Shown: piece by piece, positions 2,183-64,000 of the stretch
Layout of the letters: every line of letters starts with the position of its first letter
Numbering within the stretch: position 1 is the stretch's first letter
Source of the DNA: Alphaproteobacteria bacterium
Lineage (GTDB): Bacteria; Pseudomonadota; Alphaproteobacteria; Rhodobacterales; Rhodobacteraceae
Length of the DNA stretch: 64,000 nucleotides
Direction of reading: 5' to 3'
NCBI GenBank assembly: GCA_030429105.1
Contig: JAUIDE010000002.1
Span: 7,896 to 71,895 of the forward strand
Program-made: the position numbers and the translations under genes
The notes under the pieces: model-generated
What the model was told of the DNA's origin: nothing
The model's input: the letters and a program-made list of their open reading frames with translations, nothing else
Database searches by the model: none

Positions 2183-2260
2183 GCGCCCTCTTCGCGCCCG
2201 CATGGGGGCGGGTCAAGGGCGGCCTGTTGCCGTCGGATGCGGCTGTGTTATCCTTCGCGT

Positions 2261-4125: not shown

Positions 4126-4197
4126 CGGAGGCTCCGATACTGTCTCGCCGTCAGAGATATTGCCCGGCGCGCGCGATGTCCACCGCGGCTGGCACGG

Positions 4198-45437: not shown

Positions 45438-45447
45438 CGGAGCCTCC

Positions 45448-47194: not shown

Positions 47195-48288
47195 CGCCGC
47201 GCCCCCTTGGCGAAGGCCAGCGTCTCGGCGGCGAGGGCGGCGGGGCCGGAGCCGTCCCCCAGCCGGTCGAGCAGCGGCAGGATCGCACGCATCGCCCCCG
47301 TCTCGGGCCGGTAGGCCGGGTCGGCGGCGAGGGGAGAGAGCCAGAGGAGCCCGTGGGCGAGGCCGCGGAGCCGCTCCATCGCCGCGACCAGCGCCTCCGG
47401 CCCACCCCGCTCCAGTCCGTCGGAGACGACGATGGCGAGCGCGGCGCGCGCATGGGCGGCGAAGCGGGGGACGGAGAGGAAGACAGAGAGCGCCTCGCCA
47501 AGCCGCGTCCCCCCGTCCCAGTCCGCGACGAGCCCCGTCGCGAGCTGGAGCGCCTGCGCCTCGTCCCGCCGCCTGAGCGCCGGCGTCACGCGGGTGAGCC
47601 GCGTGCCGAGGGTGAAGGCCTCGCCACGCTCGGCGGCGCGGAGCAGAGCATGGCCGAAGCGGAGCGCGCCCTCCGTCCCCGCCTTCATCGAGCCCGAGAC
47701 GTCGATGAGGAGGAGGACGCGGCGCTGTCGCAGACGGCGGCGGCGGGAGGGGAGGCGCGTCAGCTCCCCGTCCTTCCGCATCATCTCCCGGAACGCCGCC
47801 CGCGGATCAGCCCGCCGCCCCCCGCCCGAAGCGAAGCGGCGGGAGCGGCGGCGCGGCAGGCGCCGCTCCGCGAGGCGGGAGAAGGCGCGAAGGCCGGAGG
47901 CTTTGCCCTCTCCGAAGGCCCGCGTGAAGAGCCTCTCGGCGACGGAGGCGTCGGCGCCCGAAGGCTCCTCCTCCCCCGCCTCGGGCAGAAGCTCCATCCC
48001 CGCCGCGTCATAGGCCGCCGGCATTTCCTCCGGCGCGCCGAGGGCGGGGGCGGAAAGCGCGCGGCCCAGAAAGGCGGCGTCGAAGAGATCGTCGAACGCC
48101 TCCGCCCGCTCCGGCCCCGGCCCGTAGATGGCGCGGGCGGCGCGGCGGATGTCGTGGATCGAGGCCGGCCCGAGGAGGCCGATTGCGGCGATGAAGCTCT
48201 CCGTCTGCTCCGGCGAGGCGGGAAAGCCCGCGCCCCTGAGGAGCGCGGCGAAGCCGAGGACCGGGCGGAGGGGGGCGGGGAAGGTCAT
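47191..48288 (-). CDS. VWA-domain protein, CoxE-like
   Basis: MIDAS motif LLIDVSGSM and an Arg-rich linker as in CoxE-type proteins. ATG at 48286-88; a GTG at 48300 is possible. Confidence 0.75.
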   Translation of the reverse strand: MTFPAPLRPVLGFAALLRGAGFPASPEQTESFIAAIGLLGPASIHDIRRAARAIYGPGPERAEAFDDLFDAAFLGRALSAPALGAPEEMPAAYDAAGMELLPEAGEEEPSGADASVAERLFTRAFGEGKASGLRAFSRLAERRLPRRRSRRFASGGGRRADPRAAFREMMRKDGELTRLPSRRRRLRQRRVLLLIDVSGSMKAGTEGALRFGHALLRAAERGEAFTLGTRLTRVTPALRRRDEAQALQLATGLVADWDGGTRLGEALSVFLSVPRFAAHARAALAIVVSDGLERGGPEALVAAMERLRGLAHGLLWLSPLAADPAYRPETGAMRAILPLLDRLGDGSGPAALAAETLAFAKGARR

Positions 48289-48300
48289 GGGCGCCCCCAC

Positions 48301-48790
48301 CAGATAAGCGCGCGACAGCTTCCGTAAGCGCCCGGCAGATCAGACCCGCGGCTGATCTGCCCGCGGCCGCGTCGGGCGTATACGCCCGACCCCGGCGGCC
48401 GCGTTTCCGCGCCCGCCGCGGCGACCGCGGTCAGATCTACGACCGACGCGGCGGCTCGGCGCCCCTCGGCCTGCGGCTTGCGCCTTCGGCCGACGGCCTC
48501 GGCGTCTCTCCCCCGGAGAGACGCTGATCGAGGCCGGGGCGCAGACCTCCTGGCGTCGCCTTCGGCTACGAAACCGTCTCCCCGAGACCAGGTTCCGGCG
48601 ACGTCGAGGACAGGGAAGAGCGGAGGGGAGAAGGGCGCGGGGATCACCGGCTCGCAAAATCGACTCTTGAGATTTACCAATGAAATCAACGAAAAAACGC
48701 CCATAACCATGGTTATGAGCCCTCTGGAGCCCCGAAAGGCCCCCTCTGCGCGCCCCTCCCGAGCGGCTTCGACGAGGCGGAGAGCCCCCC
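48301..48790. other. 490-bp non-coding, palindrome-dense spacer inside the operon
   Basis: Hairpins or palindromes at 48334-48361, 48362-48403 (contains a 20-nt perfect palindrome), 48502-48524 and 48576-48588. Direct repeat CGCCTTCGGC at 48481 and 48557. AT-rich block 48654-48720 carries the 16-nt perfect palindrome CATAACCATGGTTATG. Confidence 0.6.
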
Positions 48791-49672
48791 TCACGCCGCG
48801 ACCTCCCCGAGCAGTTTCTCCAGCCCCGGAGCTACAAAAGTGAGGTCGTCCTGATCCTTCAGCGCCACCCCGATGGCCCGCGCGAAGGCGCGCGGCCAGG
48901 GCGCGCCCTGCTCATGGAGGAGCGTCGCCGCCTCCGCCCATTCCACCGTCTCGGCGACGCCCGGCGGCTTCGCCAGCGGCTGCGCCCGGAGCCGCCCGAC
49001 GGCGCGCACCACACGGTCCGCCGTATCGCGGGCGACCGTGGAGGCGCGCATCATCACGATCTCCGCCTCCAGCGCCGGGTCCGGATACCCGATCCAGTGA
49101 TAGACGCAGCGCCGCCGCAGCGCCTCATGCAGCTCCCGAGTCCGGTTCGAGGTGAGGATGACGACCGGCGGCTCCGCGGCGCGGATCGTCCCCCGCTCCG
49201 GGATCGAGATGGTGAAGTCGGAGAGGAATTCGAGCAGGAAGGCCTCGAACTCATGGTCCGCCCGGTCGATCTCGTCGATCAGCAGCACCCGACCGCGCGG
49301 CTGCTGGAGCGCCAGCAGCATGGGCCGGGCGAGAAGGAAATCGTCCGCATAGAGGTTCACATAGGCGTCCCCGGCCTGCCGGATCGCCAGCATCTGCCGC
49401 GGGAAGTTCCACTCATAGAGCGCCGCCGCCGCGTCGATCCCCTCATAGCATTGCAGCCGCGTAAGCTCCCGCCCGAGCACCGAGGCGAGCGCCTTCGCCG
49501 CCTCCGTCTTGCCGACGCCCGGCGCCCCTTCCAGCAGCAGGGGCTTGCCAAGCGCGAGCGCGAGATAGGCCGCCGTCGCCAGCCCCTCGTCGGCCACATA
49601 CTGCGCGTCCCGCATCGCGTGGGAAAGCGGCGCGGGGCCGTCGATGCCGAGGATGGAGCGGCGGACGCTCAT
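48791..49672 (-). CDS. MoxR-type AAA+ ATPase, CoxD-like
   Basis: Walker A LLEGAPGVGKTE, Walker B VLLIDEIDRA. 293 aa. Confidence 0.88.
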   Translation of the reverse strand: MSVRRSILGIDGPAPLSHAMRDAQYVADEGLATAAYLALALGKPLLLEGAPGVGKTEAAKALASVLGRELTRLQCYEGIDAAAALYEWNFPRQMLAIRQAGDAYVNLYADDFLLARPMLLALQQPRGRVLLIDEIDRADHEFEAFLLEFLSDFTISIPERGTIRAAEPPVVILTSNRTRELHEALRRRCVYHWIGYPDPALEAEIVMMRASTVARDTADRVVRAVGRLRAQPLAKPPGVAETVEWAEAATLLHEQGAPWPRAFARAIGVALKDQDDLTFVAPGLEKLLGEVAA

Positions 49673-50697
49673 CAGAGCCGCTTCTTCGGCTTCGCGCCGC
49701 CCTGCGCCCGAAGCCCGCGCAGCACCTTCTCCGGCGTCACCGGCAAGTCGTCGATCCTGACGCCGACCGCCTCATAGACCGCGTTGACGACCGCGGGGAG
49801 GACGGGGTTGGCGCACATCTCTCCCGGCCCCTTGCCGCCGAAAGGCCCATCCGCCGCCGGCCTCTCCAGCACGGAGATATGGTGCGGCGCGAGGTCCCCC
49901 ATGCCAGGCATGAGGTAATGGTTGAAGTCGACAGGCCCGTGATCCCGCGCCGGGTAATAGGGCTCCGTCGTCTCCCAGGCCGCATGGCTCATGCCCATCC
50001 AGGCGCCCCCGCGCAGCTGCTGCTCCACCAGCTTCGGGTTGAGCGCGCGGCCGACCTCATAGGCGGATTTCACGTCGAGGACGGAGACCTCGCCCGTCTC
50101 GTCGTCCACCTCCACCTCCACGATCATCGCCGCGTGGGCGAAGGTGGAGACGGGCGTCATCTCGCCTGTCTCCGCATCCACCTCGGACAGAGGGATGAGA
50201 AAGATGCCGCGCCCGGCGATGGTCCGCCCCTGCCGGAACTGCGCCGCCTGCGCCGCCGCCATGGTGGTGATCGAGCGGGAGGGCGCGCCCTTCACATGAA
50301 TGTTCCCCTTCCCGTCCGTCACGAGATCGGCGGCGTCCACCTCCAGCTCCTCCGCCGCCGCCTCCAGCATCACCGCCCGCGCCTCCTCCGCCGCGCGCAT
50401 CACGGCGTTGCCGACGCGGTGCGTGCCGCGGGAGGCGAAAGAGCCCATGTCATGCGGGCCGGTGTCGCTGTCCGCCGTGTCGACGTAAACGTCCTCGACC
50501 GGCACGCCGAGCGTCTCCGCCGCGATCTGGCGCGTGACGGACTTCATCCCCTGCCCGAGGTCGATGGCGGAGAGGGCGACAGTGAACTTCCCGTCCGGGT
50601 TGGAATGGACGAGCGCCTGGCTCGGGTCGCCCCCGAGATTCATGCCGATCGGATAATTGATCGCCGCGAAGCCGCGGCCCCGGTGCAGCGCCATCAC
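49672..50697 (-). CDS. Molybdopterin hydroxylase large subunit, C-terminal part (separate ORF)
   Basis: Begins at the conserved RGRGFA...GMN..G block and contains GQGMKSV and GSFASRGT, typical of the Moco-binding C-terminal domains of XDH/CoxL-family proteins. Its start overlaps the stop of the preceding ORF. Confidence 0.85.
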   Translation of the reverse strand: MMALHRGRGFAAINYPIGMNLGGDPSQALVHSNPDGKFTVALSAIDLGQGMKSVTRQIAAETLGVPVEDVYVDTADSDTGPHDMGSFASRGTHRVGNAVMRAAEEARAVMLEAAAEELEVDAADLVTDGKGNIHVKGAPSRSITTMAAAQAAQFRQGRTIAGRGIFLIPLSEVDAETGEMTPVSTFAHAAMIVEVEVDDETGEVSVLDVKSAYEVGRALNPKLVEQQLRGGAWMGMSHAAWETTEPYYPARDHGPVDFNHYLMPGMGDLAPHHISVLERPAADGPFGGKGPGEMCANPVLPAVVNAVYEAVGVRIDDLPVTPEKVLRGLRAQGGAKPKKRL

Positions 50698-52337
50698 CGC
50701 CTCCTGAAGCCGGAAAGGGAGGAGAAACGCAGCGCCCCCTTTCGCGCCGCATCCGGCGCTGGAGGCGGAGCCGGCGTCGGGGCGGCCTGCTGAGGCGCCG
50801 GCGTCGGAGCCGACTGATACTGAGGCGCCGCCGGCCTCGGCGGCGTCGGAACGGAAACGGAGGCCCCGCCGCCCTTCCGCGCATAGCCGCCCGTGTCGAT
50901 CCCCTCGACGCGCCCGTCCTGATCAGTGACGGTATGCGCCGGAAGCCGCCCCCGTTCGCCGCCGCCGCCCTTAGTCGACGCCGCCGCCGCCGCCTCGCCC
51001 GAGAGCCGCACACCCGCCTTCTCCGCCACCACCTGACAGCACTCGACAAGGGCGCAGTTCTTTGCCTCCCGCCGGTGCGCCTTCATGTCCCCGTCGCGAT
51101 AGGCGTTGAGGATGCGGAACTCGATCGGGTTCATCCCCACCGCCTCCGCCCCCTTGTCCATATGCGCCTCGATGGCGAAATCGACGCCGGTGATGCCGAA
51201 GCCCCGCATCGCCGTCGCCGGCGTCCGGTTGGTGTAGACGCAGTAGACGTTCGCCGAGACGTTGGGGATCGTGTAGGGCCCGGGCAGGTGCCCCACCCCC
51301 TTGATGATCGCGTAGGAGGAGAGGCGGGTATAGGCCCCGCTGTCGAAATAGCCGGTGAACTGGCGGGCTATGATCCGCCCGTCCTTCATCACCCCGTCCT
51401 TCAGATACCAGCGCTCCGCCCCCCGCGGGGCGCCGACCTGCATCTCCTCCTCCCGGTCCCACGCGAACTTGCAGGGCTTGCCGGTCAGCATCGCGCCGAG
51501 GATGGCGATGGGTTCGTGAATCGAATCCACCTTCCCCCCGAACCCGCCGCCGACCGTGCCGCCGACGAAATGCAGCCGGCTCGACGGCATGGAGAGCACC
51601 TTCGCCGCCGTGCCGAGAGAGAAGAAGAGCGCCTGCGTGCCCGTGTAGCAGACATAGCGGTCGTTCACCTCCGGCGCAGCGATAGCCCCGCAGGTCTCCA
51701 TCGGGGCCTGCTCGATGGGGGACATCTGGTAGCGCCCCTCGACGATGTGGTCGGCCTGCCGGAAGGCGGCCTCGACATCGCCGTAGCGGAGCTTCTGATG
51801 GTCGTATTTCCCGTGATAGACGAACTTGTTGCCGGGATAGACCTCGCAGACGGTCGGCGCGCCGGGGCGGATCGCCTCCTCCACGTCGAGGACATGGGGC
51901 AGCACGTCCCAGTCCACCCGCACCTTCTTCACCGCGGCGCGGGCGGCCGCCTCGCTCGTCGCGATCACGGCGGCGACCGGCTCGCCCTTGTAGGCGCATT
52001 TCGTCTCGGCGAGCAGCGGCTCGTCGTCGAGCCCGAAGTCGAGCAGCGAAAGGAGCGTGTTGAGATTCCGCGGCACATCCTTCCCGGTGAGGACGCGCAC
52101 AACGCCTTCCGACCGTTCCGCCTCGCTCACGTCGATACGGCGGATGCGGGCGTGATGATGGGGGGAGCGGGCGCAGCGGATGTGCAGCAGCCCCTCGAAC
52201 AGGTGATCGTCATAGAAGGGCGAGCGCCCGGTGACATGGCCGAGAATGTCCTGCCGGCGGGTCGGCTTGCCGATCTCGTTCAGGTTGTCGTCCCGCTCGT
52301 CGCGGAAGAATTCCTTGCGAAACTCGATCATGCTCAT
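50694..52337 (-). CDS. Molybdopterin hydroxylase large subunit, N-terminal part with a Pro/Ala-rich tail
   Basis: GKPTRRQDILGHVTGRSPFYDD start and an a/b-hammerhead plus first Moco domain (GGGFGGK). The last ~95 aa are low-complexity (PTPPRPAAPQYQSAPTPAPQQAAPTPAPPPAP). Confidence 0.85.
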   Translation of the reverse strand: MSMIEFRKEFFRDERDDNLNEIGKPTRRQDILGHVTGRSPFYDDHLFEGLLHIRCARSPHHHARIRRIDVSEAERSEGVVRVLTGKDVPRNLNTLLSLLDFGLDDEPLLAETKCAYKGEPVAAVIATSEAAARAAVKKVRVDWDVLPHVLDVEEAIRPGAPTVCEVYPGNKFVYHGKYDHQKLRYGDVEAAFRQADHIVEGRYQMSPIEQAPMETCGAIAAPEVNDRYVCYTGTQALFFSLGTAAKVLSMPSSRLHFVGGTVGGGFGGKVDSIHEPIAILGAMLTGKPCKFAWDREEEMQVGAPRGAERWYLKDGVMKDGRIIARQFTGYFDSGAYTRLSSYAIIKGVGHLPGPYTIPNVSANVYCVYTNRTPATAMRGFGITGVDFAIEAHMDKGAEAVGMNPIEFRILNAYRDGDMKAHRREAKNCALVECCQVVAEKAGVRLSGEAAAAASTKGGGGERGRLPAHTVTDQDGRVEGIDTGGYARKGGGASVSVPTPPRPAAPQYQSAPTPAPQQAAPTPAPPPAPDAARKGALRFSSLSGFRRR

Positions 52338-52810
52338 GCGCGCGCCCTTTCCCCGGCGGCGTCCAGCACCGCCTCGATGATCGGCTCATAGCCCGTGCAG
52401 CGGCAGAGATTGCCGGAAAGCGCCTCGATGACCTCCTCGCGCGTCGGGCGGGGGTTCCGGTCCAGCAGCGCCTTGGCGGAAACAAGCATCCCCGGCGTGC
52501 AGAAGCCGCATTGCGCGGCGAAGCGCTCCATGAACGCCTCCTGAAGCCGGTGGAGGACGGGCCCCGTCGCGAGGCCCGAAGCCGTCTCCACCTTCCGGCC
52601 CGCGGCGGCCTCCGCCAGCGTGAGGCAGGAGAGATGCGGCTCCCCGTCGATCAGCACGGTGCAGCCGCCGCAGCCGCCCTGCCCGCAGCCGTATTTCGGC
52701 GAAAGGTCGCCGACGGAGCGGCGGAGGAAGTCGAGCAGGTTCTGCCCCTCCTCCGCGAAGGCGGCGCTCTCCCGCCCGTTCAGCGTGAAGGTGACCGGTT
52801 TCTTCGCCAT
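52334..52810 (-). CDS. [2Fe-2S] small subunit of the molybdopterin hydroxylase
   Basis: Two cluster motifs, CGQGGCGGCTV and CGFCTPG...CRCTGY. 158 aa. Confidence 0.92.
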   Translation of the reverse strand: MAKKPVTFTLNGRESAAFAEEGQNLLDFLRRSVGDLSPKYGCGQGGCGGCTVLIDGEPHLSCLTLAEAAAGRKVETASGLATGPVLHRLQEAFMERFAAQCGFCTPGMLVSAKALLDRNPRPTREEVIEALSGNLCRCTGYEPIIEAVLDAAGERARA

Positions 52811-53610
52811 CAGCCGCGCTCCATCCGTTCGAGGAGGCGGCGGAGATGCACGCCCGCGACCTCCTTCCGGTACCAGGCGCTCGCCAGCGCGTCCGTCGGC
52901 GGGTCAAGCCCCTCCGCCGCCTGCGCGGCGGCGCGGGCGATGGTCGCGGCGTCGAGCGCCCCGCCTTCCAGCGCGCGCTCCGCCCCCTGCCCCCGCATCG
53001 GCGCAGGCCCCATCGCGCCCCAGGCGACGCGCGCGCCGCGGATGCGCCCGCCCTCGGCGGGGAGGAAGGCGGCGACGGAGAGGACGGAGACGCCCTTTGG
53101 CTTGACCCGCGAAACCTTCAGAAAGCTGAATTCCCGCCCGCTCCGGGGCCGGGGAATCTCTACGGCGGCGACGAGCGGTGGGCGCGCCCGCTCCCGCATC
53201 AGTTCCTCCACCGGGCGCGCGCCCCCCTGCCCGGCCAGAACCGCGCGCGCGCCGAGCGCGATGAGCGCGACGGCGAAATCGCCGTAGGGATGGGGCGCGA
53301 AGAGGTTGCCGCCCAGCGTCCCCATATTCCGCACCTGCGGCCCGCCGATCTGCCGCGCGACCGAGTGGAGGAAGGCGAGGTCCCGCTCCGCGAGTATCCG
53401 CGCCATAGTTACCCCGGCGCCGAGCCGGACCGTCTCCCCCTGCGCCCTGACTTCCTTCAGCGCCGGGTCGGCGGAGCGGACGAGGCGCTGCGGCCCCTCG
53501 CCCGCGTTGACGTCGCGCATCAACACAGTGCCGCCGCCGAAGAAGGCGGCGCCGGAGCCCATCGCGCGGGCCGCCTCGGCGAGCGTGGGGAAGGTTTCGA
53601 CCGTCGTCAT
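52810..53610 (-). CDS. FAD-binding medium subunit of the molybdopterin hydroxylase (CoxM-like)
   Basis: 266 aa with FFGGGTVLM, VRNMGTLGGNL and a C-terminal CO-dehydrogenase-flavoprotein-like domain. ATG 53608-10 overlaps the upstream stop (ATGA). Confidence 0.83.
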   Translation of the reverse strand: MTTVETFPTLAEAARAMGSGAAFFGGGTVLMRDVNAGEGPQRLVRSADPALKEVRAQGETVRLGAGVTMARILAERDLAFLHSVARQIGGPQVRNMGTLGGNLFAPHPYGDFAVALIALGARAVLAGQGGARPVEELMRERARPPLVAAVEIPRPRSGREFSFLKVSRVKPKGVSVLSVAAFLPAEGGRIRGARVAWGAMGPAPMRGQGAERALEGGALDAATIARAAAQAAEGLDPPTDALASAWYRKEVAGVHLRRLLERMERG

Positions 53611-54050
53611 GCCGCCCTCGCCAGATGCGCGCGGATCGCGTCGAACCCGCCCTGATAGATGTCTTCCGCCACCATCCGCCCAAGCTCCTGTTCCCGCCCT
53701 GCGGGCGTGTCGAACCGGCTCTCCCAGCGCCAGAAGGTCCGGTCCCCGTCCGTCACCGGCGCGAGGCGGACATGGGCGACGTAGTTGAGAAGCGGCACCG
53801 GCGTCTCGTGCAGGCAGTAGGAGAACGCCATGTCGGCGTCCGAGAGCGTCAGCAGCCGCTCCCGGAGTTCCGACCCGTCCCTGAGATGAAAGCGCCGGAC
53901 GCAGCCGATCCGGTCCGAAGGCTGGCCGCGCTCGATCTCGCTGTCTGCGACCGCCGGGTGCCATTCGTCATGGCCGTTGAAGTCCCGCAGCACGGCCCAG
54001 ACATCCTCTACCGGATGATCCAGCACCGTGCTCTTGACGACCTTCACCAT
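53607..54050 (-). CDS. SRPBCC (Bet v1-like) ligand-binding protein, paralog 2
   Basis: 147 aa. DVWAVLRDFNGHDEWHP...GCVRRFHL...VTDGDRTFWRWESRF. About half of positions are identical to the upstream paralog by eye. Confidence 0.72.
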   Translation of the reverse strand: MVKVVKSTVLDHPVEDVWAVLRDFNGHDEWHPAVADSEIERGQPSDRIGCVRRFHLRDGSELRERLLTLSDADMAFSYCLHETPVPLLNYVAHVRLAPVTDGDRTFWRWESRFDTPAGREQELGRMVAEDIYQGGFDAIRAHLARAA

Positions 54051-54054
54051 CGCC

Positions 54055-54492
54055 TCAGCCCGCCATCTGCCGCTTCAGCGCGTCGAACCCGGCCTGGAAG
54101 ACGTCGAGCCCGATGCCGCTGACGAGGCCCTCCGCCGCCTCCGCCGCGCAGTCGAATTCCGCCGTCCATTCCGCGAAGGTCCGGTCGCCATCCGTGACTG
54201 GCGTGAGGCGCAGCGTAGCTACGTAATCCGTCAGCGGCATCGGGCTTTCGAGGATCGAGTAGGTGCAGAAATAGTCGTAATCGGAGAGGCCGAGCAGCTT
54301 CTCGCGGATGCGGTCCCCGTTCTGGAGGTGGAAGTCGCGAATGCAGCCGACCCGGTCCGCCGGCTCGCCGTTCTCGATCCGGCTGTCGCGGATGCGCGGG
54401 TGCCAGCGGGGGAGGCCGTTGAAATCCCGCACCCGCTCCCAGACCTTCGCGGCGGGCGCGTCGATGACGGAGGAAATATAGACGCGCGGCAT
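54055..54492 (-). CDS. SRPBCC (Bet v1-like) ligand-binding protein, paralog 1
   Basis: 145 aa. KVWERVRDFNGLPRWHP...GCIRDFHL...VTDGDRTFAEWTAEF. Its ATG abuts the flotillin TAG. Confidence 0.72.
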   Translation of the reverse strand: MPRVYISSVIDAPAAKVWERVRDFNGLPRWHPRIRDSRIENGEPADRVGCIRDFHLQNGDRIREKLLGLSDYDYFCTYSILESPMPLTDYVATLRLTPVTDGDRTFAEWTAEFDCAAEAAEGLVSGIGLDVFQAGFDALKRQMAG

Positions 54493-57441
54493 CTACTTCT
54501 TCTCCCCTTCCGGCTTCCCGCCCTCGCCTTTCGGCGCCTTCTTCACGGCGTCCGAGATACGCTGCATGTCGGAGGCTTCGCGGATCAGCCCGCCCTGCTT
54601 CGTGAGATTCCCGCCCTCGATGCCGATATCGCTCAGGAGGCTGTCGATCAGCGGCGCCTGGACGCGATAGCGAAGCGCGGAGTTGATGACCTCGTCGGTC
54701 GGGCTCCCGTCCCGGCTCCCGCCGCCGCCCGTCACGCCGTCGAGCTGCATGATGCGGATGTCCTGGATCTTCTCCAGCGGCTTGACGCTCGCCGCGACGA
54801 TGCCCTCCACATGCTCGAGCAGCTTGCGGCGGAAGAGCGAGGAGCGGGCCGGGTCGGTCAGCACGTTCTCCGCCTCGTTGAGGAGCTTCTGCGCCTCGGC
54901 CTCGACCGCGCGGCGAACCGCTTCCGCCTCGGCGGCGATCTTGGCTTCCGAAGCCGCCTTCTCCGCCATCAGCACGTCGATCTTCTGGCGGCGGGAGGCC
55001 TGTTCCGTCTCCCGCACGGTCTTGACGCGTTCCTCCGCCTCGGCGGCGCGGGCGCGCGCCGCGTCCGCCTCGGCGCGGGCGGCGCTCTCCTCCAGCGACT
55101 TCTTGTAGAGCGCGACGGCCTTCTCCATCTGCGCCGTCTCGACCGTCTTCTCGCGTTCGACCTCGAGCCTGCGGCGCTCGGTCTGATGGGAGATGCGGAT
55201 TTCGTCGAGCCCGCGTTCGGAGGCGATGCGCGCACGCTCGATATCCTCCTGGCTCTCGATCTCGGCCTCGCGCAGCGCCTGGACGCGGGCGATCTCCAGC
55301 TGCTCGATGGAGCGGCGGCGTTCGAGCCGTGCGGCTTCGAGCGCGCGCTCGCGCTCCACATCCGCCGTCTCGACATCCTTCCGCGCGGCGATCTCGGCCT
55401 GCTTGACCTCCGCCTCGGCGGCGGCGGCCTTCGCCTTCTTGCCGGCCAGGGCGACGACGCGCTCCTGCTCCGCCGTCTCGACGACGCGCTTGCGCTCGAT
55501 CTCCGTCACCTCGCGGGTGCGCTGGCTGCCGATCCGGTCCTCCTCCAGCGCCAGCTCGGCGGCGATGCGCGCCTTCTCCACAGCCTCGCGGCGCCCGATC
55601 TCGGCGGCTTCGATCTCCTTCTCCCGGGCGATGGCGCGGGCGCGGACGGCCTCCTCCGCCGCGATCCGGTCGGCCTCCACAGCGCGGGTCTGCGCGATCT
55701 CGCGAAGCGCGGTGGCCTCGGCCGCGGCGATGCGCTTCGCGTCGAGCTCCAGCTTCTGGGCGATGCGCGCGGCCTCAACCGCCTCGTCTGCGGCGACGCG
55801 GGCCTCGTCCACCGCCTTGTTGCGCGCGATCTCCTCCGCGCGGGTCGCGCCGTCCGCCGCGATGCGCTCAGCAGCGAGCGCCTTCTCTCGCGCGATGCGG
55901 GCCGCCTCGGTCGCCTGCCCGGCGGCGATTTCCGCCGCCTCGATGGCCTGCTGCCGCTCGATTTCCAGCGCGCGGATGCGCCGGTCCTCCGCGATGCGCG
56001 TCTCGTTGACGACGGCGGCCTCCGCGATGCGGAGCCGCTCCGTCGCCTCGCGCGCTTCGATCTCGGCCTCGTCGAGCCCCTTCTGCCGGGCGATCTCCCG
56101 CCGGCGGATATCCTCCTCGCCGCGGATGCGCGTCTGGGCGAGGACGAGGGTCCGCGCCATGCGGGCCTTTTCGGTTTCCTCATTTGCGGCGATCTCGGCC
56201 TGCTCCACCGTCCGCTGACGCTCGATCTCCAGCGACTGCGTCTCACGGTCCTTCGCGATGCGCGCCTCGGCGACCGCCTTTTCCTGCGCGATCTGCGCGC
56301 GTTCCGTCGCCTCGCGGGCGGCGATGGCGGCCTCTTCGAGCAGCTTGCGGCGGGCGATCTCCTTCGCCTCCGTCTCCTGCTCGTTGAGGATCCGCGCCTC
56401 CCTCACCGCCCGCTCCTGCAGGATGCGGGCAGTCTCCGTCGCCTCGCGGGCCGCGATTTCCTCCGCCTCGTCGGCGCGGGCGCGGGCGATCTCGCGGGCG
56501 CGGACCTCGCGCTCGGAGGCGATGCGCGCCTCGGCGATGCCGCGCTCGTTCGCGATGCGCGCCTTCTCGATCGCCTCCCGCGCTGCGATCTGCGCGCTCT
56601 CGGCCTCCGTCTCCCGCTCAGCGCGCTCCCGCGCCAGCATGGCGCGCTGCTGCGCCCGGCGGAACTCGACCTCGCGCTCCTGTTCGAGCCGCGCCTCCTC
56701 GCTCTCGCGCTCGATGTCCAGCGCCTGCTTCTCCGCCTCGAGGTTGCGGGCGCGGATGAGGATGGAGGTTTCCTGCTCGATATCGTTGCGAAGCTTCCGC
56801 CGCGCCTCGATCTCCTTGATGATCGAGGTGAGACCCTCGGCGTCGAACCGGTTGGACGGGTTGAAGAATTCGAGCGCCGTCTGGTCGATGTCGAGGATCG
56901 CGACGGATTCGAGCTCCAGCCCGTTGCGGCTGAGATCCTCCTGCGCCGCCTCCTTCACCCGGGCGACATAGGAGCCGCGCTGCTCGTGCATCTCGCCCAT
57001 CGCCATCTCGGCGGCGACGGCGCGCATCGCGCTCTCGAACTTGCCGGCGAGAAGGGCGTGGAGGCTCTCCGGCTCAAGCGTCCGCCGCCCCAGCGTGGAG
57101 GCGGCCATCGAGACGGCGTCCTGCGCCGGGCGGACGCGGACATAGAACTCCGCCTCCACATCCACCCGCATCCGGTCCTTCGTGATGAGCGCCTCGCCCT
57201 TCGTGCGGCTCACCTTCAGCGGCAGGGTGTTCATGTTGACGGGCGTGTAGTCGTGGATGATCGGCCAGACGAAGGCGCCGCCGTCGATCACCACCTTCTC
57301 CCCGAGGAAGCCGGTGCGGACGAAGGCGATCTCCTTCGTCGAACGGCGGTAGAGCCATTGCATGACCCAGTAGACGATGGCGATGACGACCACCGCCACG
57401 ATGAGCCAGAGGATCAGCTGCCCTATGATCTGACCTGTCAT
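54493..57441 (-). CDS. Oversized flotillin/YqiK-like SPFH protein (982 aa)
   Basis: N-terminal TM helix, SPFH domain (AFVRTGFLGEKVVIDGGAFVWPIIH...), very long Glu/Ala/Arg coiled coil and a flotillin-type C-terminal region. AAGGGAGGA before the ATG. Confidence 0.85.
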   Translation of the reverse strand: MTGQIIGQLILWLIVAVVVIAIVYWVMQWLYRRSTKEIAFVRTGFLGEKVVIDGGAFVWPIIHDYTPVNMNTLPLKVSRTKGEALITKDRMRVDVEAEFYVRVRPAQDAVSMAASTLGRRTLEPESLHALLAGKFESAMRAVAAEMAMGEMHEQRGSYVARVKEAAQEDLSRNGLELESVAILDIDQTALEFFNPSNRFDAEGLTSIIKEIEARRKLRNDIEQETSILIRARNLEAEKQALDIERESEEARLEQEREVEFRRAQQRAMLARERAERETEAESAQIAAREAIEKARIANERGIAEARIASEREVRAREIARARADEAEEIAAREATETARILQERAVREARILNEQETEAKEIARRKLLEEAAIAAREATERAQIAQEKAVAEARIAKDRETQSLEIERQRTVEQAEIAANEETEKARMARTLVLAQTRIRGEEDIRRREIARQKGLDEAEIEAREATERLRIAEAAVVNETRIAEDRRIRALEIERQQAIEAAEIAAGQATEAARIAREKALAAERIAADGATRAEEIARNKAVDEARVAADEAVEAARIAQKLELDAKRIAAAEATALREIAQTRAVEADRIAAEEAVRARAIAREKEIEAAEIGRREAVEKARIAAELALEEDRIGSQRTREVTEIERKRVVETAEQERVVALAGKKAKAAAAEAEVKQAEIAARKDVETADVERERALEAARLERRRSIEQLEIARVQALREAEIESQEDIERARIASERGLDEIRISHQTERRRLEVEREKTVETAQMEKAVALYKKSLEESAARAEADAARARAAEAEERVKTVRETEQASRRQKIDVLMAEKAASEAKIAAEAEAVRRAVEAEAQKLLNEAENVLTDPARSSLFRRKLLEHVEGIVAASVKPLEKIQDIRIMQLDGVTGGGGSRDGSPTDEVINSALRYRVQAPLIDSLLSDIGIEGGNLTKQGGLIREASDMQRISDAVKKAPKGEGGKPEGEKK
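55528..56583 (-). repeat. Eight tandem 132-bp (44-codon) in-frame repeats inside the flotillin gene
   Basis: Repeat units start at residues 287, 331, 375, 419, 463, 507, 551 and 595 (AREA/ANEE/AGQA/ADEA/AEEA...). One codon register (res 331, nt 56451) was checked by hand. Confidence 0.75.
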
Positions 57442-57459
57442 GTCATCCTCCCTTTCGGC

Positions 57460-58284
57460 TTACCTGCCGATGCGCTTGAACGCGCGCGTCTGTTCGGTGA
57501 GCGCGGTTTCCGCCGGCAGCCGCTCCATGGAGGACGCGCCGTAGAACCCGTCGCAGCGTTTCGCGGCCTTCAGGACGAACTCCGCATCCGCCGGCATGGA
57601 GACCGGGCCGCCATGAACGAGGATCAGCGCGTCCGGCTTCACGGCCAGCGCCGCCGCCGCCCACTTGTCCACGAGGCCCGGGCAATCCTCCAGCTTCAGC
57701 GCCGTCTCGGCGCCGATGGAGCCGCCCGTGGTGAGCCCGAGATGGCAAACGATGATGTCGGCCCCTGCCCCCGCCATCGCCGCCGCCGACGCCTCGTCGA
57801 AGACGTAAGGTGTCGTCAGCATGTCCTTCCGGCCCGCCTCCGCGATCATCTCGACCTCGAGCGCGTAGCCCATCCCCGTCTCTTCGAGGTTGGCGCGGAA
57901 CGTGCCGTCGATCAGGCCGACCGTGGGGAAGTTCTGCACGCCGGAGAAGCCCGCCGCCTTCACCTCGTCGAGGAAGCGTGGCATCAGCCGGAACGGGTCG
58001 GTCGCGCAGACCCCGGCGAGAACCGGGGTATGCTTCACGACCGGCAGCACCTCCGAAGCCATCTCCATGACGATGGCGTTCGCGTCGCCATAGGGCATCA
58101 GTCCGGCCAGCGAGCCGCGCCCGGCCATGCGGTAGCGGCCGGAATTGTAGATGACGATGAGGTCGATCCCCCCCGCCTCCTCGCACTTCGCCGAAAGCCC
58201 TGTGCCGGCGCCGCCGCCGACGATGGGCTCCCCGCGCGCCTTCATGGCGTGGAGCCGTTCCAGAATGTCCTTGCGGGGGATCAT
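57460..58284 (-). CDS. PEP-hydrolase-like TIM-barrel protein (usual partner of UPF0261; C-terminal half of plant Tm-1)
   Basis: 274 aa. [33 protein letters not shown]...GVQNFPTVG family pattern. ATGA overlap with the upstream gene. Confidence 0.78.
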
Positions 58285-60441
58285 CGCCGCGCCTCTTTCT
58301 TCTTGGCCGGCCTGCCGCCATGCAGCTCGCGGAAGGCGGCGACGAGCGCCGCCGAGAAGGCCGGGTCGTTGATGTTGTGCGGCAGGCGGATCAGTCGCCG
58401 GTTCGCGCTCTGGCGCACTGTCGCCTCCAGCGCGGAGAAGAGCGCGGCGCGCGCCGCCGGATCGTGGAAATCCCGCCCCGGCGCGTCGAGGGCGGAGACG
58501 CCGCCCTCGGGCAGGAGGAACCGCACCGGCCCCTCCATCTCGTTCAGCCGCCCGCCGATCCATCGCCCCATCGCCGCGCATTCCTCCGCCGTGGTGCGCA
58601 TCAGCGTCACCTGCGGGTTGTGGACATGGAGCTTCCGCCCCCGATAGCGCTCCGGCACGGTCTCCATTGCGCCGAAATTCACCATGTCGAGCGCGCCGAC
58701 CGAACCGACATAGGGGAGCCGCCGGCGGATGACGGCGCCGAACCGGTCCTCCGTCGCGGGGAAGACGCCGCTCATCATCATGTCGGCGACTTCCGTCGTC
58801 GTCGCATCGATCACGCCGAGGAGGCGGCCATTGTCGGCGAGGCTCTCCATCGCCCGGCCGCCGACGCCGGTGGCGTGGAAGACGAGGCAATCGTAATCCT
58901 CGCCGAGGGCCGATACGACCTGCTGCACGCAGGGCGTCGTCACGCCGAACATCGTCAGGCCGATGGCTGGTTTTCGCGGCGGGGCCGGCCGCGCCGCCCT
59001 TCGCGCGCGGACCATGCCGACCATCGCCTGCGCGGCGTTTCCAAGCACCTCCTCCGTGATTGCGTTGAGGCCCTGCATGTCCGCCACCGAATGCATCATC
59101 ATGATATCGGACGCGCCGACATATTGCCCGACCTCGCCGCTCGCCACGGTGGAGACGAGAAGCTTCGGCGCGCCGAACGGCAGCGCGCGCATCGCCGGGG
59201 CCGCGAGCGCAGCGGCGCCGGAGCCGCCGGCGGAGACGATCCCCGCGATCCCCTCCTGCCGGGCGATCCAGCGCTCGAAGGCCAGCGCCATCGCCGTCAC
59301 CGCCGCGCCCCGGTCCCCGGTGAAGACGCCGGCAGCGCCGCGCGGGTGGAAGGCTGCGACCTGGTGCGCCGGAATGTCCGCGCCTGAATGCGCGCCGGTT
59401 GTGGAAAGATCGACGAGCCGGACGGGCAGCCCGGCCGCCAGGATCAGGTCGCGCAGATGGCGGAGTTCCGGCCCCTTGGTGTCGAGCGTGCCCGCGACGA
59501 GAACCACCTGCGCCCCCGGCGCGGCGAGCGGGCGGATCTCCGCGGAGGGCGCGGCGAGCGGCCCTGTCGTCACGACCCGCGCCTCCCGCTCCAGCCGGTG
59601 GACGGGGACGGGCGCGCTCCAGCGCGTCGGCGCCGTCGGGTTGGCGTTATAGATCTTCACCGCGGCAGGGGCGGAGGGAGCCGCCGCCTTCGCCGCGCCC
59701 TGCGCCGGCTCCGGCGTCTCATCATGACCGTGCCGGCCGACGCCGAGCAGGCGCTGCTGCAATTCCCGGTCCGCCGCCAGCGCCGCGGCGGGCGCGATGC
59801 GGTTGATCCGGCCGTTGACCATGATCGCAACCTCGGAGGCCACGCCGCAGGCGACGCCGATGTTCTGCTCGATCACCAGCACGTCAATCTCGCCCTCGTC
59901 CCCGAGGCGGAGCAGCATCTCCTCCACCTGCGCGACAATGACGGGGGCGAGCCCTTCGGTCGGCTCGTCCATCACGAGGAGCTTCGGGTTGGAGAGGAGC
60001 GCGCGGGAGATGGCGAGCATCTGCTGCTCCCCGCCCGAAAGCTGCGCGCCGCCGTTCCCCTTCCGCTCCGCGAGGCGCGGGAATGTCGAATAGACCCGCT
60101 CGATGGACCAGGCGCCGCCCGGCTTCGCGACCATCCGCAGATGCTCGTCCACCGTGAGCGAACGCCAGAGCCGCCGCCCCTGCGGCACATAGCCGACGCC
60201 CATCCGCGCGATCTCCGCCGCGCTCCGCCCCGTCAGCGGCTGGCCGCGGAAGCTGATCGTCCCGGAAGCGGCGGGGACGAGGCCCATGATCGCCTTGCAG
60301 AGCGTCGTCTTGCCCATCCCGTTCCGCCCGACGACGGAGAGGACGCCGGATTTCAGCGTCAGATCGACGCCCTGCAAGGCATGGCTCGCGCCGTAGAAGA
60401 CGTTGAGTCCCTTGATCTCGAGGCCGGGCGGGCCGACGCGC

Positions 60442-60449
<8 letters not shown>
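58281..60449 (-). CDS. Fusion protein: LivF-type ABC ATPase (N) plus UPF0261 / Tm-1-like ATP-binding domain (C)
   Basis: Residues 1-~235: Walker [10 protein letters not shown], signature LSGGEQQML, Walker [14 protein letters not shown]. An ~80-aa Pro/Ala linker follows. From ~314: [22 protein letters not shown]...[11 protein letters not shown]...[14 protein letters not shown], typical of UPF0261. ATG 60447-49 lies behind GGAGGGG. Confidence 0.8.
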
Positions 60450-61217
<768 letters not shown>

Positions 61218-61221
<4 letters not shown>

Positions 61222-62261
61222 CGCGAGCCCCCGCGCAGAGGATCGGCCTTGCTCGCCCGCCGCGCGCGCCACCGCTCCCAGAGGCCGAGAACGCCATCCG
61301 GCGAGAAGAAGACGATGAGGAGGAAGCCGAGCCCGATCAGGAGCTTGAAGCGTTCCGTCGAGAGCCCGAACGCGCTCAGCGCATCCGGAGCGAAAGAGCG
61401 GAGGAGAACGTAGATGAGCGCCCCGATGAAGGGCCCGATGGGCCGCTTCAGCCCGCCGACGACTGCGATCACGAGGATGTCGATCACCGCCGGAATCCCT
61501 GCCGTGCCGGGCGATATCTGCGCGTTCTGCCAGACGAGGAGGATGCCGCCGAAAGCCGCAATCACGGAGGCGAAGGCGTAGGCGGCGATCCGGTGCGCGG
61601 TGACGTTGAAGCCGAGCGCGGCCATCCGGCGCGGATTGTCCCGCACCCCCTGCAGCGCCAGCCCGAAGGGCGAGCGCGAGACATAGACGACCACGAGCCA
61701 GGAGAGCGCCGCCATGCCGAGCGTCAGGTAGTAGAACGGAACCGGCTGCCTCCAGTCCACCCCGAAGAGTTGCGGCGGGACGACGAGGTTGAACCCGGTA
61801 TAGCCGTTGAAGATCCCGTAATTCTGCCGCGTGAAGTAGAAGAAGGCGGAGGCGATGGCGAGGGTGATCATGATCGTGTAGATTCCCTCCGTCCGCACCG
61901 CCAGCGCGCCGACCAGCGCCCCCCCGATCGTCGCGATCACGACCGCGACGGGGATGTAGACATACCAGGGCAGGAAGAGGCTCAGCGCCTCCACCCCGCT
62001 CGGCCCGAAGATGGCGACCATGTAGCCGGCGAGGGCCGCGACGCTCATCTGGATAAGGCTCACCATCCCGCCATAGCCGGCGAGGAACATGAGGCTCAGC
62101 GCGATCATCCCGAGGATGAAGGTCCAGCCGAAGACCTGGAAGAGCACGAAATCGTTCGCCACCGCCGGCATGATGAGGAGGAGGAACCCGACCGCCCAGA
62201 CCGGAGCGGGAATCCGCTCCACCCAGTAGGGCTCCGCAGGCTGGCGCTCGATCACCGCCAT
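61218..62261 (-). CDS. LivM-type branched-chain-amino-acid-family ABC permease
   Basis: 347 aa, polytopic, LivM-like. ATG 62259-61 lies behind GAGGG. Confidence 0.85.
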
Positions 62262-62268
62262 CGCGCCC

Positions 62269-63282
62269 TCACCGCCTGTCGCCGAGCAGGCCCTGCGGCC
62301 GGAAGGCCAGCACCAGCGCCATGATGAGGAAGGTGAAGACGACCGAATAGGTCGGCGCATAGACGAGGCCGAGCTGCTCCGAGAGCCCGATCACCAGCGC
62401 GCCGATGGCGGCCCCCGGGATCGAGCCCATCCCGCCCACGATAACGACGACAAGCGATGCGAGGAGGAAGCGCGTATCCTCCCCCGGGGAAAGAGACTGG
62501 AACGTGCCGCCCACGATCCCGCCCATCCCCGCGAGCCCGGCGCCGAAGCCGAAGACGGCGAGGAAGACGTACTGGATGCGGACGCCGGAGGCCGCCAGCA
62601 TCTCCCGGTCGTCCACCCCGGCGCGGATCAGCATGCCGAGCCGGGTGCGGTTCAGCACCAGCCACATCGCGACGCCCATGACGATGGCGGCGACGAGGAT
62701 CGCGATGCGGACGGCGGGATACCGCAGATAGACGATCTCCCCGTCGCTCTTGATCGAGGAGATGACGGGCAGCGTCGTCGGGCCGGAGAGCCATTCCGGC
62801 GAAAGGATGGTGTAGGACTGCCCGCCCCAGATCCAGAGCATCAGGTCGGCGAGGACGACGGAGATTCCGATCGTCACCAGCGTCTGGCGCAGGTCCTCCC
62901 CCTCCATCCGGCGGAAGACCTGATTCTGCATCAGGAGGCCGAGCGCCGCGACGAGCACGAAGACGACGGGAAAGGCGAGAAGCCAGGAGCCCGTCGAATC
63001 CGATATCTCGAAGCCGACATAGCCGCCGAGGAGATAAAGCGAGCCGTGCGCGAGATTCACGTTGCGCATCAGCCCGAAGATCAGCGTGAAGCCGGCGGCG
63101 ACGAGGAAATAGAGTGCGCCGAGCGTGATCCCGCCGAAAACGGCGTTGAGGAAGATCCGCTTCCTGCCGATTGCATCCTCAAGCCCGTCCGGCCATGGCG
63201 CGAAAACGAGCCAGAGCAGCGCCGCCACGACAATGGCGATCACCAGGGTCCAGATCGGATGTCGCGAAGCGAAGCGCTGCAT
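62269..63282 (-). CDS. LivH-type ABC permease
   Basis: 337 aa, polytopic, with the typical NLAHGSLYLLGGY block. Confidence 0.88.
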   Translation of the reverse strand: MQRFASRHPIWTLVIAIVVAALLWLVFAPWPDGLEDAIGRKRIFLNAVFGGITLGALYFLVAAGFTLIFGLMRNVNLAHGSLYLLGGYVGFEISDSTGSWLLAFPVVFVLVAALGLLMQNQVFRRMEGEDLRQTLVTIGISVVLADLMLWIWGGQSYTILSPEWLSGPTTLPVISSIKSDGEIVYLRYPAVRIAILVAAIVMGVAMWLVLNRTRLGMLIRAGVDDREMLAASGVRIQYVFLAVFGFGAGLAGMGGIVGGTFQSLSPGEDTRFLLASLVVVIVGGMGSIPGAAIGALVIGLSEQLGLVYAPTYSVVFTFLIMALVLAFRPQGLLGDRR

Positions 63283-63405: not shown

Positions 63406-64000
63406 TCAGCCGTGCTGGACGAGCACGCTCCGCCGGTAGACCGAGGGCGGCACGACTCCGTTGGCGATGAAGAAGCGGGAGAAGCTCGCCTGGCTTGAGA
63501 AACCAAGGTCGAGCCCGATCTCGGAGACGGCCTCCGTCGTCTCCGCCAGCCGGTCGATCGCACGCTCCATGCGAAGGGCGTTGAGATAGATGTTCGGCGT
63601 CGCGCCTACCTGCTCGCGGAAGAGCTTGTAGAAATGCGGGCGGGAAAGGCCGACCTCCCGCGCCACCTCGTCGAGGCCCAGCGTCTCCCCCAGCCGCTCC
63701 TGCAGCAGCCGTAGCGCGTTACGGATTCGATAATCCCGCTTCGGCAGCGCTGGTCCGACGAACGCGGGGCCGCGCTTCGTCCACTGCCACGACTGGTCGA
63801 AGGCCGCCTGCGTGAGCGCGCAGAGCCGTTCTTCCAGCGCCGGGTCCACCCGCTCCGCATCCAGCATCGAGGTCGCGATCCCGTAGACATGTCGCGCCAT
63901 GTGGTCCGCCACGTCCACGCCGACGCGCCCGAAGCGGAGCGAGGCCGCGGCGCGGCGGGAGGCTTCGAGGAACCAGCCGGGACGAATGTAGAGGACGAGC
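63406..64000 (-). CDS. AraC-family transcriptional regulator, 5' end beyond the window
   Basis: C-terminal double HTH (LDEVAREVGLSRPHFYKLFREQVG...EIGLDLGFSSQASFSRFF). The frame stays open from 63918 to the window edge when read by hand. Confidence 0.8.
   Translation of the reverse strand, partial: LVLYIRPGWFLEASRRAAASLRFGRVGVDVADHMARHVYGIATSMLDAERVDPALEERLCALTQAAFDQSWQWTKRGPAFVGPALPKRDYRIRNALRLLQERLGETLGLDEVAREVGLSRPHFYKLFREQVGATPNIYLNALRMERAIDRLAETTEAVSEIGLDLGFSSQASFSRFFIANGVVPPSVYRRSVLVQHG

Follow-up and report, generated by a model that had tools for sequence, protein, structure and literature searches.

A 64,000-nucleotide stretch of DNA from an Alphaproteobacteria bacterium of the family Rhodobacteraceae (contig JAUIDE010000002.1 of GenBank assembly GCA_030429105.1, positions 7,896 to 71,895; here called the window) contains a gene whose product joins the second ATPase of a HAAT-family ATP-binding cassette (ABC) importer to a UPF0261 (Tm-1-like) domain. 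We found this fusion to be conserved in more than 70 bacterial species. Because it is real, conserved, and always located beside flotillin and SRPBCC genes, the UPF0261 family very probably works at a membrane importer. Tentatively, and as something near an even call, we read the fused domain from sequence comparison as a tethered kinase module that sits at a flotillin-organized transporter and may act on an aromatic or phenolic solute brought in by it.

The fusion is encoded by one intact gene

The gene and the parts of its product are as follows.

58281..60449, minus strand: fusion gene, 722 aa, HAAT-family second ABC ATPase plus linker plus UPF0261 (Tm-1-like) (open reading frame, or ORF, with its translation; Pfam; NCBIfam; homolog clusters)
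59730..60449, minus strand: ABC nucleotide-binding domain (NBD) of the LivF/UrtE type, residues 1-240 (Walker A 41-48, signature 137-142, Walker B 157-162)
59514..59729, minus strand: linker, residues 241-312 (per-column conservation in 120 homologs; low predicted local distance difference test, or pLDDT, scores)
59565..59657, minus strand: conserved linker motif, residues 265-295 (N270, P274, R276, and W277 invariant)
58284..59513, minus strand: UPF0261 N- and C-terminal domains, residues 313-722 (Pfam, NCBIfam, PDB alignments, invariant columns)

The frame runs from an ATG at 60449 to a TGA at 58283-58281, with zero internal stops in 722 codons. Pfam assigned ABC_tran (PF00005) to residues 25-164 (E 7e-28), the UPF0261 N-terminal domain (PF06792) to residues 315-483 (E 3e-56; 190.6 bits versus a cutoff of 27), and UPF0261_C (PF23189) to residues 493-709 (E 2e-88; 295.7 bits versus a cutoff of 27), and the protein passed the NCBIfam model NF002673 (584.5 bits versus a cutoff of 520). 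Pfam gave zero matches to TOBE, NIL, or CBS domains in the fusion protein. When the fusion was modeled with AlphaFold2 as a single chain from an alignment of 99 sequences, the mean pLDDT was 79, and the model was confident for residues 4-236 and 306-712.

The ATPase domain is intact. Its Walker A (G41RNGMGKT48), signature (L137SGGEQ142), and Walker B (L157LVMDE162) motifs do not vary among 99 aligned homologs, and neither do the NBD peptides [14 protein letters not shown] and LLVMDE. The fusion, like E. coli LivF, has EQN where the H-loop histidine would stand. The best NCBIfam models for the domain were UrtE (211 bits; cutoff, 286) and LivF (150 bits; cutoff, 441). Because both scores fall below the equivalog cutoffs, we assign it, on the strength of these model scores, to a subfamily of its own among HAAT-family "second ATPases," neither LivF nor UrtE proper.

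An earlier note, made by a model from the sequence alone, had described an uninterrupted 722-codon frame, and both the ORF and the translation agree with it; the peptides that it quoted ([21 protein letters not shown] and [14 protein letters not shown]) all occur in the translation, and the full UPF0261 domain that it began at about residue 314 corresponds to residues 313-722. Its LivF-like NBD is indeed complete from Walker A through the signature to Walker B, and the LivF type is right at the level of the HAAT family only. The Pro/Ala-rich linker of about 80 residues that it reported proved to be about 72 residues long and to contain conserved islands; among 120 close homologs, only about residues 244-263 are Pro/Ala rich, variable, and subject to insertions and deletions.

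NCBI/PGAP labels such fusions "ABC transporter permease" (e.g., CP063167.1 INQ48_40445 and NZ_CP151764.1 AABB31_RS00830). This label is a systematic misannotation, because the fusion proteins have no membrane domain. The architecture is already in public databases, and the JGI annotation describes it correctly; our literature searches found no publication on the fusion or on the gene cassette around it.

The fusion is widespread among proteobacteria

Among 5.8 billion proteins searched, full-length fusions of 717-745 aa formed more than 120 clusters, at 73-100% identity. They belong to Rhodobacterales (Pikeienuella, 97%; Maliponia; Jannaschia; Tateyamaria) and Hyphomicrobiales (Hoeflea, Roseitalea, Tepidamorphus). 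When representatives at 50% identity were scanned sensitively, both halves were present in about 39 of the 150 best matches, with overall identity as low as 42%. We then turned to genomic loci, using a scan with a UPF0261-only alignment against one genome per GTDB species; it gave about 570 genome hits in all, of which 80 were fetched, and 87 loci were classified by tblastn and frame analysis. The fusion was in frame at 72 of these 87 loci, in Alpha-, Beta-, and Gammaproteobacteria, with some on complete replicons. Carriers include Bradyrhizobium, Bosea, Mesorhizobium, Roseomonas, Azospirillum, Variovorax, Pseudorhodoferax, Granulosicoccus, and Arenicellales.

An artifact of assembly or annotation, in which a missed stop or a frameshift joins two genes, would mimic such a protein. 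High-G+C DNA yields long spurious ORFs, and in one locus (L069) the two halves truly are two genes. However, 72 independent assemblies, some of them complete replicons, keep the same frame open, the linker shows conservation at the amino acid level, and an apparent exception, one further locus (L025), is broken solely by a scaffold gap of 690 N. We consider an artifact exceedingly improbable. Because long chance ORFs are frequent at the approximately 70% G+C of the window, ORF length alone means little, and it is the domain E values and conservation that establish the gene. An example is a 1539-codon ORF (54028-58647, plus strand) that lies antisense to the flotillin, TIM-barrel, and fusion genes and is without independent support; it is a by-product of the G+C content and of Glu/Ala/Arg-rich coiled-coil coding on the opposite strand.

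The unfused loci bear on the origin of the fusion. L069 is an intermediate in which LivF and UPF0261 are separate, adjacent genes of one operon: LivH-LivM-substrate-binding protein (SBP)-LivG-LivF, a stop, a spacer of about 12 nt, an ATG, and then UPF0261-TIM-SRPBCC, with neither linker nor flotillin. Three other loci that had seemed unfused (L006, L038, and L060) were ruled out as contig edges. In a neighbor-joining tree of UPF0261 domains, unfused genes fell mostly outside a large fused grouping, a topology that fits a single old fusion or a few of them. The fusion is real and ancient. A UPF0261-TIM(-SRPBCC) module also occurs without a transporter. One unfused UPF0261 gene, from a Granulosicoccaceae metagenome-assembled genome (L056), is nested among fused ones in the tree and lacks any TIM, ABC, flotillin, or SRPBCC neighbor within 10 kb; perhaps it arose by secondary fission or is a copy that moved.

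These distributions also bear on the earlier note, which had thought the fusion rare; it is instead the dominant form among the closest relatives. No frameshift or stop was present in independent assemblies, and orthologs, which the note had allowed might always be separate and unlinked to ABC genes, are mostly fused and always ABC linked. Its suggestion that the UPF0261/TIM pair acts at the transporter is strengthened by the 72 in-frame fusions among 87 loci, by the L069 intermediate, and by tight gene packing.

Flotillin and SRPBCC genes are constant partners

A flotillin gene was present at 67 of 67 fused loci and at 0 of 12 unfused loci (p = 1.7e-14 by Fisher's exact test, without correction for phylogeny). 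SRPBCC genes were found at 60/60 fused versus 5/9 unfused loci, the TIM barrel at 64/70 versus 11/12, and a molybdenum (Mo) hydroxylase at 37/56 versus 0/7. Flotillin and SRPBCC are more faithful partners of the fusion than the TIM barrel is. The flotillin link is the most unexpected result; the association with flotillin and SRPBCC was absent from the reading given in the earlier note, and we found no publication that mentions flotillin, SRPBCC, and an ABC transporter together.

The loci have two layouts that share a core of transporter, fusion, TIM barrel (in most), flotillin, and SRPBCC. Type A, the layout of the window, includes the Mo-hydroxylase and an AraC regulator. Three Pfam-annotated loci, from Hoeflea, Tepidamorphus, and Pikeienuella, have the same gene order: binding protein, iron-containing alcohol dehydrogenase (Fe-ADH), AraC, LivH, LivM, LivG, fusion, TIM barrel, flotillin-like protein (980-1080 aa), and two SRPBCC proteins, followed by the Mo-hydroxylase (FAD, 2Fe-2S, and split Mo subunits), a MoxR ATPase, and a VWA protein. 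The Pikeienuella locus (L003), whose fusion protein is 97% identical to that of the window, was used for comparison. The binding-protein and Fe-ADH genes lie past the window end in L003, and the binding protein is also present in related loci; with it, the HAAT operon set is complete, comprising a LivG-type ATPase, two BPD_transp_2 permeases, and a Peripla_BP_5/6 binding protein (the last known through L003 and related loci). Type B is exemplified by Variovorax paradoxus VAI-C (L086). Upstream of the transporter it has an FAA-hydrolase-family gene, a PcaD-like hydrolase, and two amidohydrolases; the core reads LivH-LivM-SBP-LivG-fusion-TIM-flotillin (563 aa)-SRPBCC; and downstream lies a second SRPBCC protein, fused to an NADPH:quinone reductase-like zinc-type alcohol dehydrogenase (L086 16247-17719), a fusion seen in 13 of 20 type B loci.

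This association could mean that the locus encodes a membrane metabolon, in which the fusion would only anchor a pathway enzyme at the membrane, alongside the flotillin and SRPBCC proteins, to act on a later hydrophobic or membrane intermediate, or on a cofactor such as quinone, and not on the fresh solute. The strict co-occurrence with flotillin and SRPBCC fits such a role, as do the SRPBCC::quinone reductase fusion of type B loci and the accessory enzymes that differ between types A and B around an unchanged core; in addition, CoxG-type SRPBCC proteins recruit Mo-enzymes to the membrane. We nevertheless regard a metabolon as distinctly unlikely: there are far simpler ways to anchor an enzyme, the fusion is always on the ATPase of one transporter lineage, and the binding protein and permeases covary, which points to a link with cargo.

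In the window, the genes around the fusion are arranged as follows.

63406..64000, minus strand: AraC-family regulator, cut by the window end (Pfam, L003 comparison)
62269..63282, minus strand: LivH-type permease, 337 aa (Pfam)
61218..62261, minus strand: LivM-type permease, 347 aa (BPD_transp_2; start set by comparison with L003)
60442..61221, minus strand: LivG/UrtD-type first ABC ATPase, 259 aa (stop overlaps the fusion ATG by 8 nt)
57460..58284, minus strand: PEP-hydrolase-like TIM barrel, 274 aa (ATGA overlap with the fusion stop; PF09370)
54493..57441, minus strand: flotillin-like protein, 982 aa (PF01145 Band_7 and PF15975 Flot; starts 18 nt after the TIM gene)
54055..54492, minus strand: SRPBCC (Polyketide_cyc2) protein 1, 145 aa (0-nt gap after the flotillin gene)
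53607..54050, minus strand: SRPBCC (Polyketide_cyc2) protein 2, 147 aa (ORF; the L003 ortholog carries PF10604)
48791..53610, minus strand: Mo-hydroxylase gene set of the xanthine dehydrogenase (XDH) family, type A specific (Pfam, NCBIfam, junctions)
53610..52810, minus strand: Mo-hydroxylase FAD subunit
52810..52334, minus strand: Mo-hydroxylase 2Fe-2S subunit
52337..50694 and 50697..49672, minus strand: Mo-hydroxylase split Mo subunit (MoCoBD_1, 547 aa; MoCoBD_2, 341 aa)
49672..48791, minus strand: MoxR/CoxD ATPase
48300..47191, minus strand: CoxE-like VWA protein
47194..46313, minus strand: Amidohydro_2 family protein

From LivH to CoxD, 13 genes follow one another at intervals of -8 to +18 nt, and terminator-like sites are not in excess (3 versus 3.2 expected from shuffled sequence). 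This spacing marks the cassette from LivH through LivM, LivG, the fusion, the TIM barrel, and flotillin to the two SRPBCC genes as translationally coupled. The 982-aa protein has the SPFH and Flot domains of the flotillin family, with a hydrophobic N-terminal segment visible in the translation and a long Glu/Ala/Arg-rich coiled coil between SPFH and Flot; no NfeD partner gene was present in the annotated examples. Its length varies among loci from about 560 aa (type B) to about 1130 aa (Yoonia), with the SPFH and Flot ends kept. The central region of the flotillin gene has an AT skew of down to -0.47 and 33-nt periodic repeats at 55715-55830 and 56519-56589.

The two genes for the split Mo subunit overlap by 4 nt, and every type A locus seen has this split. 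Carbon monoxide dehydrogenase (CODH) was considered as the identity of the Mo-enzyme and rejected: XDH and 4-hydroxybenzoyl-CoA reductase models outscored CODH, all below cutoff. CoxD- and CoxE-like genes adjoin the enzyme despite these non-CODH scores. The only large gap in the gene train, 490 nt (48301-48790), separates MoxR/CoxD from VWA/CoxE and holds a 169-codon ORF (48285..48794, minus strand); in Hoeflea (L001) the CoxD and CoxE genes overlap directly. Farther downstream of the Amidohydro_2 gene and a metallo-beta-lactamase-fold gene lies a gene (43878-45557, minus strand) for a 560-aa protein with SMP-30/gluconolactonase-like and isochorismatase domains; this protein and its neighbors may be further pathway enzymes.

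The linker resembles a conserved tether

Residues 237-305 of the AlphaFold2 model have pLDDT values of <50. Counted from L-L-G-V, where the ATPase domain ends, to the G-T-x-D-T-K motif, the linker spans 80 to 143 aa among 68 fusions of both locus types. Because of this low confidence and variable length, we infer that the linker acts as a tether and not as a rigid coupling. Parts of it are strongly conserved: residues 265-295 read K-I-Y-x-S-N-P-x-x-P-T-R-W-S-x-P-V-P-V..L-E-R-x-A-R-V-V-T, and residues 304-312 read E-I-R-P-L-A-x-P-G. All 68 fusions have a [PF]-x-R-W core or a sequence close to it (P-x-R-W in 57; F-[NT]-R-W, I-T-R-W, or P-N-K-W in the remainder). Conserved yet predicted to be disordered, the linker resembles a docking motif for a partner protein.

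The fused domain retains the ATP site and histidines of MarK

The only UPF0261 member with demonstrated catalytic activity is MarK (Saro_1862) of Novosphingobium aromaticivorans, described in 2025 with a crystal structure (PDB 9MPY), a homodimeric kinase that converts ATP to ADP and phosphorylates acetovanillone and related aromatics at the phenolic hydroxyl (PMC12624787). The fused domain belongs to the same two-domain fold family and aligns with MarK over its full length (192 bits). In its ATP-contacting motif, G320-T-L-D-T-K325, residues G320, T321, D323, T324, and K325 are invariant in 99 homologs; D323-T324-K325 aligns with D14-T15-K16 of the MarK ATP site, and the motif lysine corresponds to Tm-1 K20 and MarK K16. 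Likewise, H525 aligns with MarK H219, which bonds the phenolic oxygen (PMC12624787, from which the residue roles are taken), and H610 aligns with MarK H304; both histidines are invariant in the same homologs. From the MarK pocket (G195, T196, H219, F283, I285, H304, and H348), the fusion keeps G195, H219, and H304. With MarK in hand, the statement in the earlier note that the biochemical function of the UPF0261/TIM pair is unknown no longer applies to UPF0261 (PMC12624787).

In contrast to the fused domain, MarK is a stand-alone homodimer encoded in an acetovanillone (acv) cluster, and a TIM partner, flotillin, and SRPBCC have not been reported for it. Genes like acvCDEF/hpeCBAD for a carboxylase or phosphatase were absent from the Pfam-annotated type A loci and from the annotated type A and B examples, and no carboxylase or phosphatase genes were among the frequent neighbor gene clusters of the loci. 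By pocket and gene context, both of which fail to match, the fusion is judged not to be a MarK ortholog.

The closest solved relative of the fused domain is tomato Tm-1 (PDB 3WRV-3WRY; 316 bits versus 192 bits for 9MPY in PDB alignments). Plant Tm-1 joins UPF0261 to the TIM-barrel family of the next gene in the window (PMC5028733). Tm-1 differs from our fusion in that its partner is a TIM barrel and not an ABC ATPase, in being eukaryotic and cytosolic, and in that its known activity is solely the ATP-bridged binding of a viral replicase. The window does not have the plant Tm-1 architecture, since UPF0261 and the TIM barrel are separate genes with an ATGA overlap; UPF0261-TIM proteins do occur among the representatives (P0185, P0186, and P0194), and no NBD-UPF0261-TIM triple fusion was found among the top 150. 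Antiphage defense, prompted by the antiviral role of Tm-1, was considered and rejected: PADLOC gave generic ABC-ATPase matches only, with none for UPF0261, TIM, flotillin, or SRPBCC.

The main rival to tethered catalysis is a regulatory role, in which UPF0261, with the TIM barrel, would sense ATP or a cytoplasmic metabolite and switch the ABC ATPase without any cargo chemistry, as in the trans-inhibition of MalK, MetN, and ModC. Regulation through C-terminal accessory domains is known for importer ATPases, the fused domain is nearer to a pure ATP-dependent binder than to MarK, and the unfused pair of Mesorhizobium japonicum adjoins a sigma-54 regulator. Moreover, the TIM family was once named a "TIM-barrel signal transduction" domain (PMC5028733). 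We still rate regulation as unlikely. Tethered catalysis is favored over gating because a long linker of varying length (80-143 residues) that is predicted to be disordered is ill suited to pass on a conformational change, because only one of the two nonidentical ATPases carries the domain, because the module occurs without a transporter, beside oxidoreductases, which argues for an autonomous enzymatic role, and because the putative catalytic residues, those matching the proposed catalytic histidine of MarK and its ATP-site triad, are invariant.

The TIM-barrel partner

The product of the gene after the fusion matches PF09370 (PEP_hydrolase) over 266 of 267 model positions (E 1.5e-128, 428 bits) and aligns end to end with PDB 2P10 (388 bits), which bears out the earlier note's description of a PEP-hydrolase-like TIM barrel joined by an ATGA overlap. 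Literature searches found no published function for this half of the pair. The 2P10 protein, Mll9387 of M. japonicum, matches the window's gene along its full length; it differs in context, adjoining unfused UPF0261, cupin, Gfo/Idh/MocA, and sigma-54 regulator genes, without an ABC transporter or flotillin. A TIM gene follows 64 of 70 fusions. The six without one (L040, L045, L046, L052, L053, and L057) are mostly from Mesorhizobium and Rhizobiaceae and have the flotillin gene directly after the fusion.

Weak hints of the substrate

The best solved relative of the binding protein is 4ZPJ (139 bits), which is unannotated, followed by 4EY3/4EYG/4EYK, 4EVQ/4EVR, 4EVS, and 4F06, which we take to be benzoate-derivative binding proteins of Rhodopseudomonas palustris. 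Such R. palustris proteins were reportedly described by Michalska and colleagues in 2012. Two R. palustris binding proteins, RPA0668 and RPA0985, bind benzoate and 4-hydroxybenzoate (PMC3223731). Further hints come from the neighbors, which include an Amidohydro_2 protein, a quinone reductase, a protein of the FAA-hydrolase family, and a PcaD-like hydrolase. The most likely class of solute is an aromatic or heteroaromatic hydroxylated compound, and the SRPBCC::quinone reductase fusion hints at a quinone-like ligand for SRPBCC. Reading a specific substrate from the neighbors was tried and abandoned, with sub-cutoff matches only: the Fe-ADH was 4-hydroxybutyrate-dehydrogenase-like, the Amidohydro_2 protein lactonase-like, and the type B amidohydrolases Xaa-Pro-dipeptidase-like. 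In L003, positions 1-3564, immediately upstream of the binding-protein gene (3700-4956), carry genes for a shikimate dehydrogenase, a dehydroshikimate-dehydratase-like fusion, and protocatechuate 3,4-dioxygenase alpha and beta subunits (pcaHG); Tepidamorphus has an RraA-like gene in place of these.

A possible cargo kinase at the importer

If the fused domain is a tethered kinase, it would be ATP dependent like MarK, with another substrate pocket, and would phosphorylate a phenolic or enolic hydroxyl of the solute leaving the permease, so that the solute is trapped or channeled. The TIM-barrel partner would handle the phosphorylated intermediate, the SRPBCC proteins would bind the hydrophobic aromatic ligand, and flotillin would scaffold the assembly in the membrane. 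The solute would be an aromatic or heteroaromatic acid, a phenol, or a quinone, feeding the Mo-hydroxylase in type A or the hydrolases and quinone reductase in type B. Dimerization of UPF0261, as in MarK, would bridge two transporters, each with a single UPF0261 copy, and would account for a dedicated flotillin scaffold.

Several points weigh against this account. Kinase chemistry in the fused domain is extrapolated from MarK and may not hold for it: the domain is nearer to Tm-1, which is known solely as an ATP-dependent binder and not as an enzyme, and four of the seven acetovanillone-contacting residues are changed (T196 to V, F283 to M, I285 to N, and H348 to L). Because these four pocket residues differ, the substrate would in any case not be that of MarK. 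The similarity of the binding protein to aromatic-acid binders is modest (99 bits), and both ATPases, like the binding protein, are also similar to the urea/amide Urt system, at sub-cutoff scores. The accessory enzymes are wholly different between types A and B, and one common substrate is therefore not assured. Given the six TIM-less fused loci, a two-step scheme of kinase plus TIM barrel is not universal. Finally, GTG-315 is preceded by GGGGG and is a possible internal translation start.

Relation to known systems and significance

MalK, MetN, ModC, and OpuAA carry an extra domain at the C terminus of an importer nucleotide-binding subunit, as the fusion does. Their domains, however, are small ligand-binding folds (TOBE, NIL/C2, and CBS), closely attached and present on both ATPases, whereas the fusion places a 410-residue kinase-type two-domain fold on a long tether predicted to be disordered, on one of two different ATPases. 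By its domain content, the fusion is thus not classed as a regulatory fusion of the MalK/MetN type. The HAAT transporters for aromatic acids (R. palustris HbaEFGHI/RPA0668 and RPA0985) and urea (UrtABCDE) have the same family membership and subunit set, and the UrtD and UrtE models score best for the two ATPases of the window, all below equivalog cutoffs; Hba- and Urt-type systems differ in being without a UPF0261 fusion, a flotillin gene, and SRPBCC genes. Group translocation, as in sugar phosphorylation by the phosphotransferase system (PTS) or vectorial acylation by FadD/FATP, is a functional analogy only, in that uptake is coupled to immediate trapping of the cargo: there is no homology, the coupling in the fusion is inferred, and the energy for transport comes from ABC ATP hydrolysis. 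It is doubtful, in our estimate, that the system goes as far as an ABC importer with its own cargo kinase, performing PTS-like group translocation in a dedicated flotillin microdomain with SRPBCC ligand carriers.

What is new here is an enzyme-type accessory domain on an importer ATPase and an unreported obligate partnership with flotillin and SRPBCC. To our knowledge, no established category covers importers that carry their own substrate-modifying enzyme, and we know of no well-defined, genetically fixed client of bacterial flotillins; here a single transporter lineage has a flotillin gene at all 67 loci. The UPF0261 protein and its TIM partner are widespread in bacteria, archaea, fungi, and plants (as Tm-1). 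A cargo-kinase importer, if true, would give the Tm-1/UPF0261-TIM pair its first physiological role and bacterial flotillin its first obligate client. The covalent link to one importer makes the function testable, as the ligands of the cognate binding protein are candidate substrates of the kinase.

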